Virus record (IMG/VR): IMGVR_UViG_3300030107_002115
Span: 7,481 to 71,480 of that record
Direction: 5' to 3' (one strand)
Source: a virus
DNA: 64,000 bases
A model generated the notes under the pieces. The model was not told the origin of the DNA. It worked only from the letters and a program-made list of their open reading frames with translations, and did no database searches. Within the stretch, counting starts at the first letter, position 1; the number at the start of each line of letters is the position of its first letter. The position numbers and the translations under genes are program-made. Below are positions 8,468-64,000 of this stretch, one piece after another.

Positions 8468-9459
8468 TGCCTAAACAATCTATGTCAGATTTTCTTAAGC
8501 CACAGGCTACTACTCCTGTATCTACTAATGTCCATAGTAATATAGATGACTTAATAATACAATCTAAGCTAGATGAGTTTGCACAAACTGGTGTAATGTA
8601 TACAACACCCCTAGAGTATAAGGGTGGAGTAGATGATGTAGTAGCTAATATAGCTATGAATCCAATGATGACTTTAAAAAGTTTAGGAAGTATAGGTAAA
8701 AAATTACTACAAAAAACTGGTTTGCGTAATCCAATATATCATTTTACAAGAGGTGAGAAAGCTAGAGATATATTATCAGAAGGCACTATAAGGGGAACAG
8801 GGGAAATGTTTCCGGGGAAACCTTTTTATAAAGACTCTAGAAAATATATAGATAAATTATTAAGCAAAGATAAAACAGGGTGGCTTGACCAAACAGATTT
8901 AAAATTTGTAGAACAATTTCCTAAGTCTCCTTCCGTTTCTATTACCAGAGACCCTAAATTTTTATCTAGACCTCATAAGCATGTAGGGACAGATGTTAGA
9001 TTTGTTATGGATAGAGACGAGATGATAAAAAAGGGATTAAAGATAGAGCCATTTGCTGAAAAAGGTTTTGGAAAAGTCCATAGGACTTGGGATAAAGATA
9101 AATTTATAAGAATGAACCCTATGTTTGAATTTGAAGAAAGAGTAAGAGGAAATATTCCTACTGAAAATATAAAAATGATAGACCTTATAAGGTTTTCACC
9201 AAATAACTTCCTTACAGACATAAACAATCAAGATTTAATTAAAACATTAGTAAAATCTAACATTCCAAAAATAAAAAGTCAAACAGCCTACAATCAACTC
9301 CTAGATTTAAACAAAAGATTAACAAGTAAAAATTGGGAAGACAAAGTTAGTAAGCAAGGCGGTGTTCTACATATTGCAGACACTAGGGGGAATTTATTAA
9401 AGTATATAGATGAATTATTAAATACTCCTACTTATAAATTTGACCCATTTAAACGCTAA
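8467..9459 (+). CDS. Putative ADP-ribosyltransferase-fold protein, last gene of the virion operon
   Basis: Motifs IYHFT ... SVSITRDP ... EFEERV in the order of the three ART core strands. Confidence 0.5.
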   Translation: MPKQSMSDFLKPQATTPVSTNVHSNIDDLIIQSKLDEFAQTGVMYTTPLEYKGGVDDVVANIAMNPMMTLKSLGSIGKKLLQKTGLRNPIYHFTRGEKARDILSEGTIRGTGEMFPGKPFYKDSRKYIDKLLSKDKTGWLDQTDLKFVEQFPKSPSVSITRDPKFLSRPHKHVGTDVRFVMDRDEMIKKGLKIEPFAEKGFGKVHRTWDKDKFIRMNPMFEFEERVRGNIPTENIKMIDLIRFSPNNFLTDINNQDLIKTLVKSNIPKIKSQTAYNQLLDLNKRLTSKNWEDKVSKQGGVLHIADTRGNLLKYIDELLNTPTYKFDPFKR

Positions 9460-10787
9460 AAAGGATTAGGAGTTCCACTAACTGTATCTCCTCTTTTATT
9501 TGCCATAGCTACTGCATCCTGTTCTGTTTCTGTAACCAAACAACTATTACCATGATAACCTACCTCACAAGAATTAGTCTGTCCATATCTATTCTTAGCT
9601 ACTATAAGTTCTAAGTAGCAATCACTATTACCATCATCTCCATACCTAGATACCCAAGGATAATGAGAGAATACTACAATCTCTGCGTCTTGTTCTAAGT
9701 TACCAGACTCAGCAAGGTCAGATAACCTAGGCACTCTATCATTTCTATGTTCCATATTTCTATTCATTTGTGATACTAATACTACAGACATATCCTCAGC
9801 TTTAGCCAACCATTTATAATTACGACTTACATCTCCTATCTTTAAACGCAGGTCTCTTCTATCTTGAGGTGGGTGTTCTATTAATCCTATATGGTCATCA
9901 ATAACTACGTCTGGCTTAATAGCTTTTATCTCTCTAAACGTATTCTCCATATCTCTTACATCATCAAACATAAACAACCTACCTTCGTATACTTCTTTTA
10001 TTTTATCCATAGTTTCTTGTATACTATCTTGGTCTAAGCTAATATTATTTCTAAGGTTTCTATATTGTAAGCTATCACTTTCCATAGCTAAAAACTTTTT
10101 CATCATCTCCGTATTAGGCATCTCTCTATTAAACATTATTACTTTCTTACCTTGATGTACTAAATTCCTAGCCATATTTGCAGCTACAGTAGTCTTAGCA
10201 TTTCCGGGTCTACCAGCTATAATAGTTATCTCTCCTCTAGTCATACCTGTTATTACTCTATCTAGTTTAGGCAACCCTGTTTGTATTAATGTGGTTGAAT
10301 TAAATATAGATTCTTTAGTCTCTTCAAGTAAAGCATTAACACTAAATATTTTATTAGGTTGTAATTTAATAATATTACCTATGGTAGTATGTGCATCTTC
10401 AAGTAACGCTTGAGTCTCTACGCTATTATCGTTAATATCTTGAGAGATAGCAGACATTTGTCTATCTAACATTCTTCTAAGGTAATAATTATGCAACATT
10501 TTTGCATATGCAACTGCATGAGAAGGAGAAGTTACTTTCTCTAAAAATCCAGATATTTCATATACAACATGATAGCCTGTATTATTTAAATTAACTTTAT
10601 CAGAGATAGTATTTAAATCTATTTGCTTGTTTTCTTTATGCAGTTTTCTAATTGCAATCCAAACTTTTTTATTAAACTCTGAATAGAAAAAATCATCTGA
10701 ATCAATCCAAGATAATACTTTATCTATTTGACTTGGGTCTTGTATAACGCAACCAAGTAATGCTTTTTCTAGTTCTACACTCTTCAT
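9456..10787 (-). CDS. dnaB: Replicative DNA helicase, DnaB family
   Basis: ELEKALLG N-terminus, AGRPGNAKT, REM, SQMNR, PRLSDLAESGNLEQDAE, VAKNRYG. Confidence 0.95.
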   Translation of the reverse strand: MKSVELEKALLGCVIQDPSQIDKVLSWIDSDDFFYSEFNKKVWIAIRKLHKENKQIDLNTISDKVNLNNTGYHVVYEISGFLEKVTSPSHAVAYAKMLHNYYLRRMLDRQMSAISQDINDNSVETQALLEDAHTTIGNIIKLQPNKIFSVNALLEETKESIFNSTTLIQTGLPKLDRVITGMTRGEITIIAGRPGNAKTTVAANMARNLVHQGKKVIMFNREMPNTEMMKKFLAMESDSLQYRNLRNNISLDQDSIQETMDKIKEVYEGRLFMFDDVRDMENTFREIKAIKPDVVIDDHIGLIEHPPQDRRDLRLKIGDVSRNYKWLAKAEDMSVVLVSQMNRNMEHRNDRVPRLSDLAESGNLEQDAEIVVFSHYPWVSRYGDDGNSDCYLELIVAKNRYGQTNSCEVGYHGNSCLVTETEQDAVAMANKRGDTVSGTPNPF

Positions 10788-16693: not shown

Positions 16694-16927
16694 TTATTTT
16701 TCCCATTCTAATCCCTCTTCTTCTTTGTTTTTATCCATAGCTTCTACTACTATATCTCTATCTTCTACTATCTTTTGTAGATATATACCACTTTCTTCTA
16801 GCAAACCAAGTTCATCTTCTATAAATCCGTAAGTATCTCTACGAACTCCTCTAGAATCTGGATATACTGCTAGCTCTACAAGTATAGTTTCGTAGTCTGC
16901 ATCTATATCAAACGATTTATTATTCAT
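16694..16927 (-). CDS. Hypothetical acidic protein
   Basis: ORF coupled to amidoligase gene. Confidence 0.5.
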   Translation of the reverse strand: MNNKSFDIDADYETILVELAVYPDSRGVRRDTYGFIEDELGLLEESGIYLQKIVEDRDIVVEAMDKNKEEEGLEWEK

Positions 16928-18110
16928 TATTACTTCCTTCTATTGTGAACTTTTCAGTTCGTTTATTTACATATTCTAATAACTCAGAACCTATAACATA
17001 TTTTAATTGTCTTTGAATATTAGAATCTTTATACATAAATTTATTTAGTTTTGTTGGAGTTTTTTCTTTACTTAAATATATTCCTTTTTCTATAATAGCA
17101 TTACATATTTTAATCCAATTTAAAATTTTAGTTTTATTAAGTGTACCACTATGATGCCTAAACTCTATAGTTCCGTGATAATACCTAGCGTGTAAGTTTA
17201 GACCATAATATCTACAATCATTATATTTTTCTGTACTAGGATAATAACCATCATAGTAATAATCTACTAATGATTGTTCACAATTATCTTTTGCTATGCT
17301 TTTTAAATTATCCATACTAATAGGAAACTTTTTACACCAATTAGATTTTCTTCTAGAAGGTGGCATCATATTAAATATAGCAGGTTCTAATACTTTATAA
17401 ACAATACCTATAAATGCTATTTCTCTAGCAGATAAATCTAGAGAATTAAAATGTATATGTAAACCACAAGACCTATTGACTCTAGCTTTATAGTCAAATG
17501 CCCAATGTGTTAAGTTTGTAATGTTATTATATAGAGAATCTCCATTTGCAGGAGTAGAGACCATCTCTGTTCCACTATATCCTTCGTCTGAATGTATAGA
17601 ACCATCGTGGCAATGAGTCCAACCACTTGGATTATCTATAGTTTGTAAATCGCTAGGATATTGACACTCTGATTCTATACCTACATATCTTTTAATATCT
17701 AATTTGTTAAAAGTTGTAGAGGTTCTAGTGTTAGAAGGTAATGATAAATTATTATTAAAATTATCTACGCAATTACCTTGACATTCTGAATCGCAATTTT
17801 CACATAGAAGCTCTTCTCTATCGTCATTCCAATACATATAATCTCTATCTCCAAGATGGTCGCATCTCTCACAATGAGAATAATACTCACCAAAACAACC
17901 ATCGCAATATGGTGTATCACTAGGACTCCAATATACTTCATCTATATATATTTCATCTGTACAAGCATCACATACATAATAATCATCTTGACATACATCA
18001 CATCTATCACTATCATTTAGTTCTGCTACCTCTTCTCCACAATCATTACAACAAAGAAGCTCTACTGGAGGTGGTTCTAGGTTATTGTTTACTTGTCTTG
18101 TTTCTGGCAT
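16920..18110 (-). CDS. Putative amidoligase (COOH-NH2 ligase type 2) with N-terminal CxxC repeats
   Basis: GIESE, DGSI, EMVS.P, SCGLHIH, RYYGLN, TIEFRHHSGT. Confidence 0.88.
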   Translation of the reverse strand: MPETRQVNNNLEPPPVELLCCNDCGEEVAELNDSDRCDVCQDDYYVCDACTDEIYIDEVYWSPSDTPYCDGCFGEYYSHCERCDHLGDRDYMYWNDDREELLCENCDSECQGNCVDNFNNNLSLPSNTRTSTTFNKLDIKRYVGIESECQYPSDLQTIDNPSGWTHCHDGSIHSDEGYSGTEMVSTPANGDSLYNNITNLTHWAFDYKARVNRSCGLHIHFNSLDLSAREIAFIGIVYKVLEPAIFNMMPPSRRKSNWCKKFPISMDNLKSIAKDNCEQSLVDYYYDGYYPSTEKYNDCRYYGLNLHARYYHGTIEFRHHSGTLNKTKILNWIKICNAIIEKGIYLSKEKTPTKLNKFMYKDSNIQRQLKYVIGSELLEYVNKRTEKFTIEGSNNE

Positions 18111-19536: not shown

Positions 19537-21486
19537 TTATTGGTTGTCTATTTGTCTATTTGTTATATACTCACAGGCTTCACTACCACCTATTATATTT
19601 ATTAATTTAATAGGTTCTATTTTAAAGAACCTGCCTTCATTGTATATAATTCTATTTATTTTCTTACCTCTATTTGTAGATAAGTTCGCAGTCTCTTTTG
19701 TAGACTGCATTATATTATATAAAAATTCTATCCATTTCATTATAGGTCTTGATTCTTCTGTACCTTCGTGGTGTCTAAATTCTATTGTGCCGTGATAAAA
19801 TCTAGCGTGTATATTTGTACCTATATATCTAGCCGTATTGTATCTATTTGTATTTATATCTGTTTCATTCCAATTTATATAATAAAATTTAGAGAAATCT
19901 ACTATGTCTTTACATTTTATTATATTATTATAATTAGCTATAAATCTTTTAGCATAACTAGAATCTCTCCTGTCTCTAGGTAATGACCTTGTTAATTCAC
20001 TATCTATCTTAGACATAATTAAAGATATAGCTTGTAATTCTTTAAACTTAAAGTCTCTAGCATTAAAATGTATATGTACTCCACAAGTACTATCAACAAA
20101 ATTACCTAAATCGTTATGATGGTCTTCTAATTCATCTACACTTCTTTTTATACTATCTCCTACAAGTGGTGCAACGTGTTTAAATTCTACTCCTCCGTCA
20201 CTTAGAGAGCCATCTGATACAGCTTTCCAAGCTGTAGGGATATCAACATTGTCTAAATAGTGTTCACAATCATCATAATCTGTAATCACTTCACTCTCTA
20301 CAGAACAATGTCTATTAATTGTATCATTTTTATTTACTTCTATAACATAAGGTGCTCTATATCTATTTTGTGTACTATACAATAAATTATTTAATTTTTG
20401 CTTACTACAACTATTGCATAGACACATATCAAAACAATATAGATATTCATTATCTAGTTTTTTCCTACAAGATGAAATATATTTCATTCTATTGTCTTTT
20501 GACTTAGATAAACATATTTCTAAGTCTAATATTGTATAATTACCACAATGATTACAAGATTTATATAATGCACTTGTGCATTCAGTACAAATATTTTTTA
20601 TACCACTATCTTTCACATAATTTAATACTTCTGAACGTATTCTATTTTCTCCGTCTACATTATTTATATATTTAAAGTTATATTCCTCTAAGCACATATC
20701 ACAATCTACTTTTAATTTATCATAACAAGTATTACAATATGTATGCTCATTAACTCTACGAGATGTCATTTCCCTAGGGACATATAATAGATTACATTTA
20801 TCACAACAATACATCTCTCTTATTCTTCCATAAGAGAATGAACCTTTCATTTCTTTTTCTATCATTTTAATTCTTGTATGACTTAAACTAAAGAATCTAG
20901 AATAACTATAATTAGAATTAATAGGCTTTACCCATTCTATTTTAGCTAAATTCTCTACAAGTGGCTTAGACTCATATTTCCAACTTAGACAGAAACTAGC
21001 TATACTATATGCACCTGTTGTATCTATAGCGTTTTTATTAATATTTTGTAGAATCTCACCCATCTCTGGGTTATCTTTATAATTAGGATATCTTTTATGT
21101 AGTGGATTATAGAACAATACATTATTACCATTAATTTTCGTAGAAAATATAGGTATATAAGATTGAAATAATATATCTTGACTTCTTGCTACATATATTC
21201 TCTTAGTAATTTTATGTTGTAGAATAAATCTATGTGGTGCAACATCTCTCCCATATCCTTCTATAAAGAAATCTGATATTACTTTTTTAATTGTAAACAT
21301 TCTACCATATACACTATAATAATTCTCTATTTCACTATATAGATAATTATATAAAGTTTTAGTATAATCTTTATTTATAAGTTTTGCTAGATTATTTTTA
21401 TCTATATCCTCCCAAGAAATATGTGTATAACTTACATCAAAACACATTCTAGGATTTAAAACTAGAACTTCATTTGAATATCGCAT
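19537..21486 (-). CDS. Second putative amidoligase with long Cys-rich N-terminal region
   Basis: SVESE, SDGSL, GVEF, TCGVHIH, RYIGTN, TIEFRHHEGT; several CxxC pairs. Confidence 0.85.
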   Translation of the reverse strand: MRYSNEVLVLNPRMCFDVSYTHISWEDIDKNNLAKLINKDYTKTLYNYLYSEIENYYSVYGRMFTIKKVISDFFIEGYGRDVAPHRFILQHKITKRIYVARSQDILFQSYIPIFSTKINGNNVLFYNPLHKRYPNYKDNPEMGEILQNINKNAIDTTGAYSIASFCLSWKYESKPLVENLAKIEWVKPINSNYSYSRFFSLSHTRIKMIEKEMKGSFSYGRIREMYCCDKCNLLYVPREMTSRRVNEHTYCNTCYDKLKVDCDMCLEEYNFKYINNVDGENRIRSEVLNYVKDSGIKNICTECTSALYKSCNHCGNYTILDLEICLSKSKDNRMKYISSCRKKLDNEYLYCFDMCLCNSCSKQKLNNLLYSTQNRYRAPYVIEVNKNDTINRHCSVESEVITDYDDCEHYLDNVDIPTAWKAVSDGSLSDGGVEFKHVAPLVGDSIKRSVDELEDHHNDLGNFVDSTCGVHIHFNARDFKFKELQAISLIMSKIDSELTRSLPRDRRDSSYAKRFIANYNNIIKCKDIVDFSKFYYINWNETDINTNRYNTARYIGTNIHARFYHGTIEFRHHEGTEESRPIMKWIEFLYNIMQSTKETANLSTNRGKKINRIIYNEGRFFKIEPIKLINIIGGSEACEYITNRQIDNQ

Positions 21487-57896: not shown

Positions 57897-58092
57897 AACT
57901 TTCCTCCGTTACAGTTTTATTATCTATATTAGATTTAAGCAATATTTCATTATCTATATCTTTTAATATTGGTGTTAAATTATTAAACATTTTTAACTCA
58001 TCTTCAGATCGGTGTTGTTTGTTGCTTAATATCTTGTGATAAACCCTTAAACAATCCAAGATCACTTCCGTTTTTTTCTTGTTTAGTTTCAT
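57862..58092 (-). CDS. Hypothetical protein
   Basis: GGAG RBS, C-terminal CEVCD. Confidence 0.45.
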   Translation of the reverse strand: MKLNKKKTEVILDCLRVYHKILSNKQHRSEDELKMFNNLTPILKDIDNEILLKSNIDNKTVTEESYENKAKCEVCD

Positions 58093-59443
58093 TTTTATTC
58101 TCCATTTCTTCTATTTCATAATTTTCAGCTAACGCTACAGAATGATGGTCATAAATTTTACATTTATCACCTAAAACACCTAATTCAACAATACCAGTTT
58201 TTCCATATCTGTTTTTACCAACACAAACATCAATACCATATTCACCGTTTGATGATCCAACTCCTAAGTATCTCCATTCATAATACATAAATAAGATAGT
58301 TTCAGCATCTTGTTCTATTGATCCACTATCTCTTAAATCTGATGGAATAGGACGCTTATTGGGTCTTTCTTCGCACTTTCTATTTAATTGCGATACAAGT
58401 ATAGCTGACATATTATAAGACTTACAAAGTGTCTTATATTCTTTCATTATAGCATCTGTACGTAAACGTGGGTCTTCTATATGTCTTAACGTTGCAAGAC
58501 CAATATAATCATCAATAACTACATCTGGTCTTACTTGTCTTATTGTTGCAACGGTAGATTCAAAGTCATTACTTTTATCTTTCATAATTAACTTATCTTT
58601 ACCCCAACGTTTTATTAAATTATCTTTAGATTGCTTTAAGTCCTTATCATCAATAGATGACAAAGTACCTGTAATTGCACGTGTATAAGATACTTGTTTT
58701 GATTCGGAAACTAATAATTTTTGCATCATAGATGAATTTTTCATTTCACGATTAAATACAAGAACTTTATACCCACGATCTAATAAAGACCTTACAACAT
58801 TAATTGCCATTGTACTTTTAAAATGTCCCGGTCTACCAGCAATAACTGTAATTTCACCACGTCTCATACCACCAATCATTTTATCTAATCCACTATAACC
58901 AAAACGTATAGTATTATCTTGGTTTTTCATATCTTTTATAGCCACGTCCATAGTTTTCTCTAAATTAAACTTATCATCTCCGTGTATAGATAATATATTT
59001 CCAATACTATTATGTATTTTACTTAAATAGTCTGACGTTTTTGTATTATCGCTACCAATTGTTTTTTGTATATTAATAACAATATTTTTTAAGTTTCTTA
59101 GTTCTGATTTTTCATATATATTTTTAGCATATTGACTAGCAAAACTTGGTGTTGTCATTTTATCAAAATAACCTAATATATCATATACTGGTGTACCACT
59201 TGCAGAATCTGAGTTTTTTAATTGAGATTTTATAGTTGTAATATCTACTTTTACTCCACTTTTATATAAAGTTACTATTTTATCCCAAATAACTTTGTTA
59301 AACCCATCATAAAACATATCCTTTTTTACAATGGGTAAAACTTCATCTATCTTTTTATTATCAGTAAGTACACAAGCTATTAATGCTTGTTCAGATTCTA
59401 TTGATCTAGGTTGTAACGTAGTATTATTTTGATTTTTCTGCAT
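58004..59443 (-). CDS. dnaB: Replicative DNA helicase, DnaB family (phage B)
   Basis: PRSIESEQALI, AGRPGHFKS, SQLNR, SDLRDSGSIEQDAE, KNRYG. Confidence 0.95.
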   Translation of the reverse strand: MQKNQNNTTLQPRSIESEQALIACVLTDNKKIDEVLPIVKKDMFYDGFNKVIWDKIVTLYKSGVKVDITTIKSQLKNSDSASGTPVYDILGYFDKMTTPSFASQYAKNIYEKSELRNLKNIVINIQKTIGSDNTKTSDYLSKIHNSIGNILSIHGDDKFNLEKTMDVAIKDMKNQDNTIRFGYSGLDKMIGGMRRGEITVIAGRPGHFKSTMAINVVRSLLDRGYKVLVFNREMKNSSMMQKLLVSESKQVSYTRAITGTLSSIDDKDLKQSKDNLIKRWGKDKLIMKDKSNDFESTVATIRQVRPDVVIDDYIGLATLRHIEDPRLRTDAIMKEYKTLCKSYNMSAILVSQLNRKCEERPNKRPIPSDLRDSGSIEQDAETILFMYYEWRYLGVGSSNGEYGIDVCVGKNRYGKTGIVELGVLGDKCKIYDHHSVALAENYEIEEMENKNETKQEKNGSDLGLFKGLSQDIKQQTTPI

Positions 59444-61702: not shown

Positions 61703-62170
61703 CTAAAATATATTATCGAGTCTTGATTTACTTTTATTCCCTTCACCTTCAAATACGTTAGGATTGTGATAGTCAATAATTATATTATCTTCTATAGTAT
61801 CATATTCATAACTAATAACGCCAGAAAGTAATGTTTTCTTATCTTTTACGTTATTTTTGTATTGATATTGAAATATAAGACAATCTTGTTTTTCTTTTAT
61901 AAGTTTGTCTTTTTTATATTTAGTTATCCAAGCGTCATTTATTAAGATAAATGCTTGTGTTTTTGATTCTACTAAGTATTTAGATATTATACCATATATT
62001 AATTGTTTATCTTTATAGGAAAATAACTTACCTAATTCTGCTATTCTTTCAATACCTTCAGAATCGTAAGTAAAAATAGTAGGTACGTGAAATTTTGCTG
62101 AACTTAATATATTTTGTGCAATTGGAATAACTTTATTTTTTAAGTTATATTCAAATGTTCTTTTTTCCAT
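61703..62170 (-). CDS. Hypothetical protein
   Basis: AGGAGG RBS. Confidence 0.6.
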   Translation of the reverse strand: MEKRTFEYNLKNKVIPIAQNILSSAKFHVPTIFTYDSEGIERIAELGKLFSYKDKQLIYGIISKYLVESKTQAFILINDAWITKYKKDKLIKEKQDCLIFQYQYKNNVKDKKTLLSGVISYEYDTIEDNIIIDYHNPNVFEGEGNKSKSRLDNIF

Positions 62171-62179
62171 AGTTTCCTC

Positions 62180-62668
62180 CTAGGCTTGAGCCATATTTGT
62201 TTGTTTTATCATATTATTAATTACTTCATTAGTTTCCTTGATTTGTTTATCTAAAGAATTGTATACTTTGCCCCCAGTTATTCTAGGTTCTATAGTTAAT
62301 TCAGATGTATCAGCATTACTTATTTTTTCTTTAGTCCATTCTTTAAACATCTTTACCTCATCTTTAAATCTATCAATAACCTCTTTATTTTTTTCATCAC
62401 CCGAAAGTACCCTATACAACGTATGCGATCTTATATGTAACGCAGCTATTTGTTTTGCAAACTTTTTTAATGGTATTTCTTTTGATTTATTTAACATATT
62501 TTTTATATTAGGTCTTTTTTCTAAGTAATTATATACCTTTTTTATAAACTTATCTGAACTAAGTTTATTACTTTTACAATTAGATAATATAGTATCTATA
62601 TCTTCTTGAAGATTTGTTATATCTTCTTTATCAATTGGGTTAAAACTGCATTTTTCTTTTAAATTCAT
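62180..62668 (-). CDS. Hypothetical protein
   Basis: AAGGAG RBS. Confidence 0.6.
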   Translation of the reverse strand: MNLKEKCSFNPIDKEDITNLQEDIDTILSNCKSNKLSSDKFIKKVYNYLEKRPNIKNMLNKSKEIPLKKFAKQIAALHIRSHTLYRVLSGDEKNKEVIDRFKDEVKMFKEWTKEKISNADTSELTIEPRITGGKVYNSLDKQIKETNEVINNMIKQTNMAQA

Positions 62669-62937
62669 TTTTCACTCCTTTTATTCAACCACTCTTTAAA
62701 CATAAAAAGTAGTAATGACATTATAAACAAAGCTACGCTATAACAAAGTATAGATATAGCTATTAATAATAAATTAACTATCCAATTTGCTACATTTAAT
62801 ATTATCATTTTAATACCCCTATACCTAAATTTGTATTTATTTCAATATACTTATTAATATTATCTTTATTAATAAATTCCCAATTAGTGTGACCATAATG
62901 ATCTAAACACCAATCATCTATGTATTCTGTTATGTCT

Positions 62938-63264
62938 TTACTCATTTAACGCTCCTTTTTCTTTTTCTTTTATGTGTATTATTTTAGCAGATAGATACAC
63001 AGCTAAGTCTAACGCTTCTTCTAATGCTTCATCTAACCAATCACGTCCATCATTAACCATTATTTGACTTCCATATTCACGCTTACCTATCTCTAATCTT
63101 TTTTGTATCATTTTTATAATTCTTTTATTAGCACCTTTTTCTTTTGCTTTATTATTGTCAAAAGCACATTTCGTACATAAACGTTCTTTTGTTTTGTAAT
63201 TTGTGATAGTGCTACTACGTCCACATTTACATTTAGGTTTTATCTTAGGCTTTTCAATACTCAT
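62938..63264 (-). CDS. MazG-like all-alpha NTP pyrophosphatase with N-terminal Zn finger
   Basis: RLEIGKREYG...DWLDEALEEALDLAVYL. Confidence 0.65.
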   Translation of the reverse strand: MSIEKPKIKPKCKCGRSSTITNYKTKERLCTKCAFDNNKAKEKGANKRIIKMIQKRLEIGKREYGSQIMVNDGRDWLDEALEEALDLAVYLSAKIIHIKEKEKGALNE

Positions 63265-63454
63265 TATTTACGTTCCTCATTTTTATATTAATACATCTTT
63301 CACAAGTTATTCTGTCTAATCCATACGTAGGCATATTACTATAGTGTATCTCTTTTTTCTTATAGTATGAATCTTTTTCATATACTTTTTTACATTTTAA
63401 ACAATATTTTAATCTTCTTGCTTCTTTTTTATGTTGGTTTTTATTAGTTATCAT
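63254..63454 (-). CDS. Zn-binding hypothetical protein
   Basis: LKYCLKCKKVYE...MPTYG...CERC. Confidence 0.55.
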   Translation of the reverse strand: MITNKNQHKKEARRLKYCLKCKKVYEKDSYYKKKEIHYSNMPTYGLDRITCERCINIKMRNVNNEY

Positions 63455-63482
63455 TATTTAATCCTTTTTAAAATTTTAATGT

Positions 63483-63857
63483 TAAGGTAAGCGTAACGAT
63501 CCGGCTTTAACACACAGACGGTTTTATTTCTGTTGGCTTCACGCTACGCTATCTATCCTTAATTGACTCAATTTAGCCCCTAGAAACGCAACTGTTTCTT
63601 AACCGTGTGTGTTTATAGTATAACAAGCCCATCGTCATAGGACTTACTGCCCAGCATTTTTGTAATACCTACTTTGGACATAGTCCTTATTCAGTAATTA
63701 CTCATCGGTGATTGAGTCAAAATTATTAGGGTAATTATCTTTTATACCAAAAATCACTTATTTTTACAAACATACTTTTGATAATGTTTTATGTGTTCCA
63801 CATTATCAGTTTATGGTTTATTTTATTTTTGATTTAAAAAGGTTTAATTACCCTAAT
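63483..63857 (-). ncRNA. Candidate large structured non-coding RNA with pseudoknots
   Basis: ORF-free, locally GC-richer, at least six complementary segment pairs, two sets of them crossing. Confidence 0.55.
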
Positions 63858-64000
63858 TTTTATTGTTTAGCTTCCATCACTAAACGTCATTATTAGATCA
63901 GGTGATCCGTATTCTTTTTTCCTATAATCAAGTACATTTTGTTTGAATGTTTTTGAATTATCAAATATTAAATCTACGTCAGTATTTTTTTCATCTTTAT

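Follow-up and report, generated by a model that had tools for sequence, protein, structure and literature searches.

A probable conserved three-stem RNA motif among the replication and recombination genes of uncultured aquatic tailed phages

Gene setting of the non-coding gap

The window, by which we mean the whole 64,000-nt stretch of DNA analysed here, comprised bases 7481-71480 of a 71,480-base viral contig, and genes for terminase, portal and major head protein marked the source as a tailed phage. The sequencing runs containing DNA of the window were labelled as marine metagenome, and none of the runs listed was recorded as RNA. CheckV rated the record (G000) 100% complete, yet the sequence joining its two ends was missing, and open reading frames were cut at both contig ends: a tail-fibre-like gene at the start (L029:1-1583) and a minus-strand gene at the end (63867-64000 of the window). 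Two DnaB-like replicative helicase genes lay in separate minus-strand blocks (9456-10787 and 58004-59443), and two further minus-strand genes (16920-18110 and 19537-21486) matched PHROG families annotated as amidoligase.

The candidate RNA region was contained in a 412-nt gap (63455-63866) bounded by two minus-strand genes. The first-pass annotation had remarked on raised GC and on the lack of a reading frame, and both observations held: GC was 0.35-0.42 across 63450-63700 compared with about 0.19-0.30 in the surroundings, and 63455-63866 contained no ORF of at least 30 aa, only frames of 21-27 aa. The first gene downstream (63254-63454, minus strand) encoded a 66-aa protein with two CxxC pairs, for which no Pfam or PHROG family matched. 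Beside it on the minus strand was a gene for a 108-aa protein without a Pfam family. Also downstream of the gap on this strand were genes identified by family matches as encoding a Cas4-like PD-(D/E)XK exonuclease, a DnaB-like helicase and a RusA-like resolvase, together with a protein whose PHROG matches carry the annotation exonuclease and which we take to resemble an annealing protein of the Sak/Erf type. These downstream minus-strand genes placed the gap at the head of, or within, a leftward replication-recombination operon.

Recovery of the motif family

No match to the gap was found by BLAST among 50,697 phage records. Searches by nhmmer and blastn against 27 loci reached via the Cas4-like exonuclease likewise gave nothing, the nearest of these loci (L002) not being syntenic upstream, and a locus search with the 108-aa neighbour protein did not find relatives. 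When metagenome contigs of four runs were compared with 62000-64000, close relatives were about 98% identical over 63457/63465-63722, while some of their adjoining segments were 86-90% identical or replaced, with a loose end at 63457. Otherwise unrelated contigs had only 63507-63551 or 63511-63541 in common with the window. Pattern scans were therefore made with that short shared segment, and they recovered the family.

Scans of viral and metagenome contigs yielded 39 distinct sequences, which with L238 and the truncated L220 made a family of 41 from marine and freshwater sources. Of the 119 rows returned by the loose viral pattern, most were coding or arose by chance, and about 17, representing 13 distinct sequences, were true members. 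The tight motif pattern gave no matches in one genome each of 185,579 prokaryote species. In one doubtful, divergent candidate (L206:4822-4922, plus strand; 23 bits), P1 was paired, P2 had 4 bp and the loop ended in CCG, but AAAACCAGG stood where members have AAAGCCGGA.

Structure and covariation of the conserved unit

Covariance model R1 matched the window at 63486-63555 on the minus strand (cmsearch, 69.2 bits, E 1.2e-15, full model 1-83), and this was its only match in the 71.5-kb record. The conserved unit proper spanned 63490-63550 of the minus strand, 61 nt in the window, without P3. The first-pass annotation had treated this segment as the 3' hairpin of a larger molecule; the hairpin was real, but it was the whole of the conserved unit and not a part of one.

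Members of the family shared the order P1, U-N-AAGCCA, P2, GUG, an optional P3, AAAGCCGG plus two bases, and P1'. P1 was 7-18 bp long and free in sequence, P2 had 5 bp with a loop of 9-12 nt ending in CCG, and P3 occupied 2-60 nt. The conserved AAAGCCGGA strand was an element of this motif, and AAGCC occurred in both of the nearly invariant junction strands.

The window copy, read along the minus strand, began with the 5' strand of P1, AGCGUAGCG (63542-63550), which formed 9 bp with the 3' strand, CGUUACGCU (63490-63498); one pair was G-U, at which the plus strand would have an A-C mismatch. The AAGG/CCUU extension noted in the first-pass annotation was present as well. Junction strand J1/2, UGAAGCCA (63534-63541), was fixed in the 39 aligned sequences save for its second base (G, A or U). 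Hairpin P2, ACAGA/UCUGU with the 10-nt loop AAUAAAACCG, followed at 63514-63533. J2/3 consisted of GUG and then UU (63509-63513), the latter at the site of P3 in other members. Junction strand J3/1, AAAGCCGGAU (63499-63508), included AAAGCCGG, which was invariant in the 39 aligned sequences; such invariance of the core was partly an effect of ascertainment, as the scan patterns fixed much of it, including parts of the U-N-AAGCCA strand and of the AAAGCCGG strand. One scan left the loop CCG and the 3' strand free, yet fixed AAGCCAACAG and CUGUGUG, and the true members that it returned all kept the loop CCG and AAAGCCGG. The conserved junction strands U-N-AAGCCA, GUG and AAAGCCGG were all present in the window copy. 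P3, which lies between GUG and AAAGCCGG, was absent from it, with only UU in that place, and was absent from L188 too; it is therefore optional and not defining. The P1 of the window was nearest to those of L052, L192 and L200, whose gene context differs.

Homologs could thus be collected as the first-pass annotation had envisaged, and covariation was present among them, confined to the motif that it had named the 3' hairpin. In the MAFFT alignment A1, P1 and P2 were paired in 90.8% of 585 cells, compared with 62.3% in shuffles and 33-56% with slid partners. Two-sided changes were found in 12 of 15 pairs, comprising all 10 tested in P1 and 2 of 5 in P2. The covariation score was 0.731 against 0.195 and was attained by none of 500 shuffles; the structure was derived from the same sequences that were tested and their kinship inflates shuffle tests, but the result was robust despite this, because of the slid-partner controls and the presence of about 22 different P1 sequences. 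In the family alignment, 86.4% of P1 cells and 99.5% of P2 cells were paired. Covariation within P2 took the form of A-U to G-C in 4 sequences and of U-A versus A-U in 26 versus 12 sequences. Loop CCG may possibly pair with CGG of the 3' junction strand as a pseudoknot, a suggestion with weak support: the bases of CCG and CGG were invariant, and the position flanking them was A/A 34 times, G/G 3 times, and G/C and A/U once each. A further candidate pair, joining the base ahead of AAGCCA to the second base behind CCGG, was of a standard type in 33 of 39 sequences.

In subsets of members, additional short elements lay close upstream of P1, namely a hairpin GGGACUCCGCAUCCC, a string CGUAAGGCUUAAAG or ACUAUCC (subsets L032, L034, L035, L151 and L185, at about 5-25 nt from P1; L104, L127 and L171; L193, L198 and L201), none of them being found in the window.

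Helices of the proposed large fold

The first-pass annotation had proposed one pseudoknotted RNA of 240-375 nt, ribozyme- or riboswitch-like, in which the hairpin was joined to sequences farther upstream. Every helix that it listed was found in place on the minus strand, including a perfectly complementary 10-bp pair that it had called P1 (I17; 63563-63572/63711-63720), a complementary long-range "kissing" pairing of 12-13 nt (I11, 92%; 63601-63613 with 63509-63523), a complementary pairing I24 (82%; 63639-63649/63692-63702), the AGAAAC/GUUUCU hairpin (63582-63587/63594-63599) and a perfect 13-bp stem formed by an inverted repeat (I5; 63725-63737/63845-63857). The existence of all these helices, together with the raised GC over 63450-63700, spoke for the large fold.

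The density of helices had been read as a sign of a large RNA, and this reading did not survive shuffling. The core (63483-63725) folded on the minus strand with a minimum free energy of -58.2 kcal/mol (z -1.45), 17 of 200 shuffles being as stable, and the plus strand gave a z of -1.60. Perfect stems of at least 6 bp numbered 8 in the 243-nt core compared with 5.9 ± 2.3 in 500 dinucleotide shuffles, 23% of which reached 8. Such similar numbers in shuffled sequences count against the large fold. More in its favor were the 10-bp stem, the longest in the core, which was attained by 3% of shuffles, and the 8-bp core of the long-range pairing, as two stems of at least 8 bp compared with 0.36 in shuffles and only 5% of these reached 2. 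The whole gap folded with a z of -4.17 that none of 100 shuffles matched, because of an AT-rich hairpin domain at 63725-63857 and not because of the core.

The kissing pseudoknot had been drawn between a strand inside the 10-bp pair and the loop of the 3' hairpin. This "loop" was not free, as it held the covarying P2 and the nearly invariant junction strands. The proposed partner at 63509-63523 comprised the loop CCG, the 3' strand of P2 and GUG, so that pairing with 63601-63613 would unfold P2 and the junctions and therefore competes with the structure supported by covariation. The duplex of the core with its complement at 63601-63613 was predicted at -14.4 kcal/mol, a value attained by 3 of 100 shuffles, and the pairing could represent a lineage-specific alternative fold masking the motif. 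Across the family, however, only 3 of 78 flanks, taken from 39 members, had a comparable anti-core complement (≤0.05), as many as chance would give.

The 10-bp pair, the H-type knot and the 13-bp stem were without comparative support. A variant in runs X4/X5 (63643 C>T with a base inserted after 63641) broke the AGGACU/AGUCCU helix of the H-type knot, and no compensating change was among the X4/X5 differences listed. In contigs of runs X2, X4/X5 and X8, 118 different letters took the place of 63723-63760, the segment that includes the left arm of the 13-bp stem. Near-identical strains apart, no relative of the upstream ~170 nt was found in any other motif member, and a pattern scan of viral contigs for the region of the 10-bp pair gave no matches. 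Taken together, the chance-level helices, the conflict with P2, the lack of upstream relatives, the breaking variant and the replaced arm left the large pseudoknotted fold unsupported, and we regard it as highly unlikely. A structured RNA on the minus strand was upheld as to its existence and strand, but its conserved unit measured 61-70 nt and not 240-375 nt.

The GC-raised, non-coding stretch upstream of the motif (63556-63722, minus strand), with the 10-bp pair, the AGAAAC hairpin and the H-type knot, had no similarity to the flanks of other members. A tblastn search of it for a protein remnant with all neighboring ORFs gave only artefacts reading through the motif. It was about 98% identical in close relatives, a level equal to that of one neighboring gene segment, and is probably a lineage-specific 5' leader. 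The AT-rich region farther upstream (63722-63866) contained the 13-bp inverted repeat, an inner 9-bp repeat (63779-63787/63800-63808) and a sigma-70-like match from 63750 to 63722 on the minus strand, features that make it a possible promoter or operator region. The 12-mer of the 13-bp repeat had no other exact copy in the window.

Strand and genomic context

The first-pass annotation had fixed the strand by a single G-U pair, and the family agreed with this argument, as P1 had 28 G-U/U-G cells against 7 A-C/C-A cells. In 37 of 39 loci the motif ran in the same direction as the longer open frames; the exceptions were a short locus (L155) and one in which the motif lay near the locus end (L159). 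In one lineage (L161/L179), it was placed within a cluster of tRNA genes and on their strand. The G-U excess, the co-orientation and the location on the tRNA strand favor an RNA of the same sense as the genes, from the minus strand in the case of the window. At this locus (L161:6655-7401; also L179:1283-2030) the motif stood between tRNA-Arg and tRNA-Thr and was flanked on both sides by two copies of a ~75-nt GC-rich repeat whose ends pair (GCGGAAG... with ...CUUCCGC); the repeat was cloverleaf-like by eye but was not called as a tRNA by ARAGORN.

The motif occurred once per record in six of six viral records of 40-71 kb. It occupied short intergenic gaps, often ~20 nt from the preceding stop codon and ~20-35 nt from the start codon that follows; in the window, the start codon of the 66-aa gene was 35 nt past P1. 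Neighboring genes varied, drawn from one pool that included primase-helicase, SSB, UvsX-like, Erf-like, Cas4-like exonuclease, AAA+ and small membrane proteins. The 28 downstream ORFs fell into 18 mutually unrelated clusters, and no ORF cluster accompanied the motif throughout its members as a consistent partner protein would. Proteins of 66-76 aa with two CxxC pairs adjoined the motif in three lineages (window 63254-63454, minus strand; L193:3034-3243; L198:3565-3795), with the homologues of the 66-aa protein lying upstream of the motif in L193 and L198 and downstream in the window. In L173 and L194, the motif was flanked by homologues of the 108-aa protein of the window and of the exonuclease.

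Types of P1 and P3 were reassorted among members. Near-identical P1 sequences were observed in differing gene contexts (L129, L165 and L194), and the same P3 was observed in L031, L056, L081, L107 and L173. The reassortment suggests that members recombine inside the invariant core or that the motif moves as a cassette. Relatives of the window had mosaic breakpoints at 63457 and 63722, near the motif. The motif appears to mark sites of gene-module exchange.

Proposed role and alternative explanations

Comparison of the sequences led us, with considerable assurance, to regard the motif as a real conserved RNA with the size and fold described. With more reserve, we favor the reading that 63490-63550 of the minus strand is one copy of this motif, which belongs to uncultured aquatic tailed phages, and that it folds within the early transcript. 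Transcription would run in the direction of the early replication and recombination genes, and the motif would fold by itself inside the polycistronic early transcript, acting in cis regardless of the adjoining gene. The remainder of the 412-nt gap would then be a lineage-specific promoter and leader, outside any large pseudoknotted RNA. As a processing or stability element, the motif could define and protect mRNA ends, either by cleaving itself or by being recognized by a host nuclease. We put this cis-acting role forward tentatively, as one that may well prove mistaken, and self-cleavage within it is doubtful.

The gene context that led us to a cis-acting element also bears on a switch. Nucleotides of the junctions were highly conserved, a pseudoknot was possible and the motif often stood 20-35 nt ahead of a start codon, as might be expected of a ligand-sensing riboswitch aptamer governing the downstream early gene. 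However, the 18 unrelated clusters of downstream ORFs represented no consistent functional class, the motif abutted the preceding stop codon in several members, and P1, at up to 18 bp, overlapped neither a terminator nor a ribosome-binding site. A long and stable P1, with downstream genes unrelated to one another, speaks against a switch and fits a constitutively folded element, and we hold an aptamer to be very unlikely indeed. A core that stayed nearly invariant while P1 varied would also be consistent with a surface touching a conserved partner, and thus with a stable small RNA of ~60-120 nt released to act in trans by binding a conserved factor of the host or the phage, as a decoy or regulator might. 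A closed P1 would give a compact, tRNA-sized molecule, each phage had a single copy, and the copy of L161/L179 lay among tRNA genes on the same strand. Against this, neither a promoter nor a terminator of its own was found, with no U-tract past P1 and no terminator-like site in the gap of the window; there was no conserved processing signal beside P1, and no partner gene consistently co-occurred. Release in trans is therefore an explanation that we rate as rather unlikely.

The motif could alternatively work as single-stranded DNA, as a priming or origin element of the replication module. It was single-copy and always within a replication/recombination module, and the strand-specific G-T pairing is possible in DNA too. 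The replication proteins, however, differed among phages whose cores were nearly identical (L056 has a fused primase-helicase, the window a pair of DnaB-like genes), and orientation followed transcription in 37 of 39 loci. One lineage had the motif in a tRNA cluster, and a three-stem junction with long invariant single strands would be more typical of folded RNA, so that we consider a DNA signal quite unlikely. We thus retain a cis-acting RNA element of the early transcript as the preferred reading.

A bolder form of this reading would place the motif in a new class of RNA, either catalytic or ligand-binding. Most likely among these would be a small self-cleaving ribozyme of a new kind, placed once per early replication operon (and once in a tRNA cluster), that cuts and stabilizes transcripts. 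The complement at 63601-63613 may then be a lineage-specific masking strand that switches the motif off. To our knowledge, orphan RNA motifs that resemble ribozymes mostly prove to be non-cleaving, and we consider this bolder proposal improbable. Few classes of small ribozyme and of phage regulatory RNA are known, and most of them came to light through free stems around invariant junctions in phage intergenic DNA. The motif described here had clean covariation, a nearly unchanged core across phages otherwise sharing little, and a fixed link to replication and recombination. At 61 nt, the copy in the window is small enough for direct bench work. Even as a mere processing or stability element, it would reveal how early transcripts are organized in uncultured aquatic phages. 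The dense helices found by eye were ordinary under shuffling, and it was sequence comparison that singled out one real element.

Comparison with known RNA classes

The absence of a known family, as the first-pass annotation had suspected, was confirmed with the covariance models of Rfam. Rfam 15 (4227 models) had no matches in the window at the gathering score, and at E≤10 the region 63200-64000 had only three unrelated weak matches, none of them on the motif. No matches at the gathering score were found in L030, L031, L032, L034 and L035, and none at E≤10 on the motif in L032 and 8 further loci. A tRNA or tmRNA was rejected, as ARAGORN called no genes in the window and none on the motif in 38 member loci. 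An intrinsic terminator was also rejected, with no terminator-like sites in 63000-64000 and no consistent U-run behind P1 in the 39 members. Full-text literature searches, which work by words and not by sequence, found no description of the motif.

Small self-cleaving ribozymes are 60-120 nt long, with free stems around conserved junctions, optional stems and varied phage gene neighborhoods. The motif was similar to the twister, twister-sister, pistol, hatchet, hammerhead and HDV-like ribozymes in its size, free stems, conserved junctions and varied neighborhoods. The Rfam models of these ribozymes, however, matched neither the gap in the window nor 9 other member loci (E≤10), and no cleavage site could be named in the motif. 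Between their early genes, T7-like phages have hairpins processed by RNase III that are simple and long, with several copies per genome. The motif would resemble them as an intergenic element co-transcribed with genes of any identity, whose role would be to define mRNA ends and protect them, but it is present in single copy and forms a three-stem junction in which ~35 unpaired bases are nearly invariant.

The nut sites of lambdoid phages and the put sites of HK022 are small structured RNAs of early operons that act in cis on the transcription machinery for antitermination. Like them, the motif would be an early-operon RNA serving the transcription or translation machinery and not one gene. It differed from them in that no terminators were identified downstream and in that its position in the operon varied, with many members between internal genes. 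Plasmids and small phages have single-strand initiation signals, which function as DNA and co-vary with a primase of their own. They share with the motif a single-copy, strand-specific, folded and conserved character and a place beside replication genes; in contrast, the replication genes of motif members differ and the orientation of the motif follows transcription.

Absent from Rfam 15, the motif is one more of the orphan structured RNAs that phages are known to contain. From IMG/VR, Fremin, Bhatt and Kyrpides (2023, PMC10690425) predicted 8,495 candidate structured RNAs, and the motif may already be among their models; their text names no motif with such a context. Their candidates are like the motif in coming from IMG/VR and in being covarying intergenic phage RNAs, some of which lie close upstream of genes.
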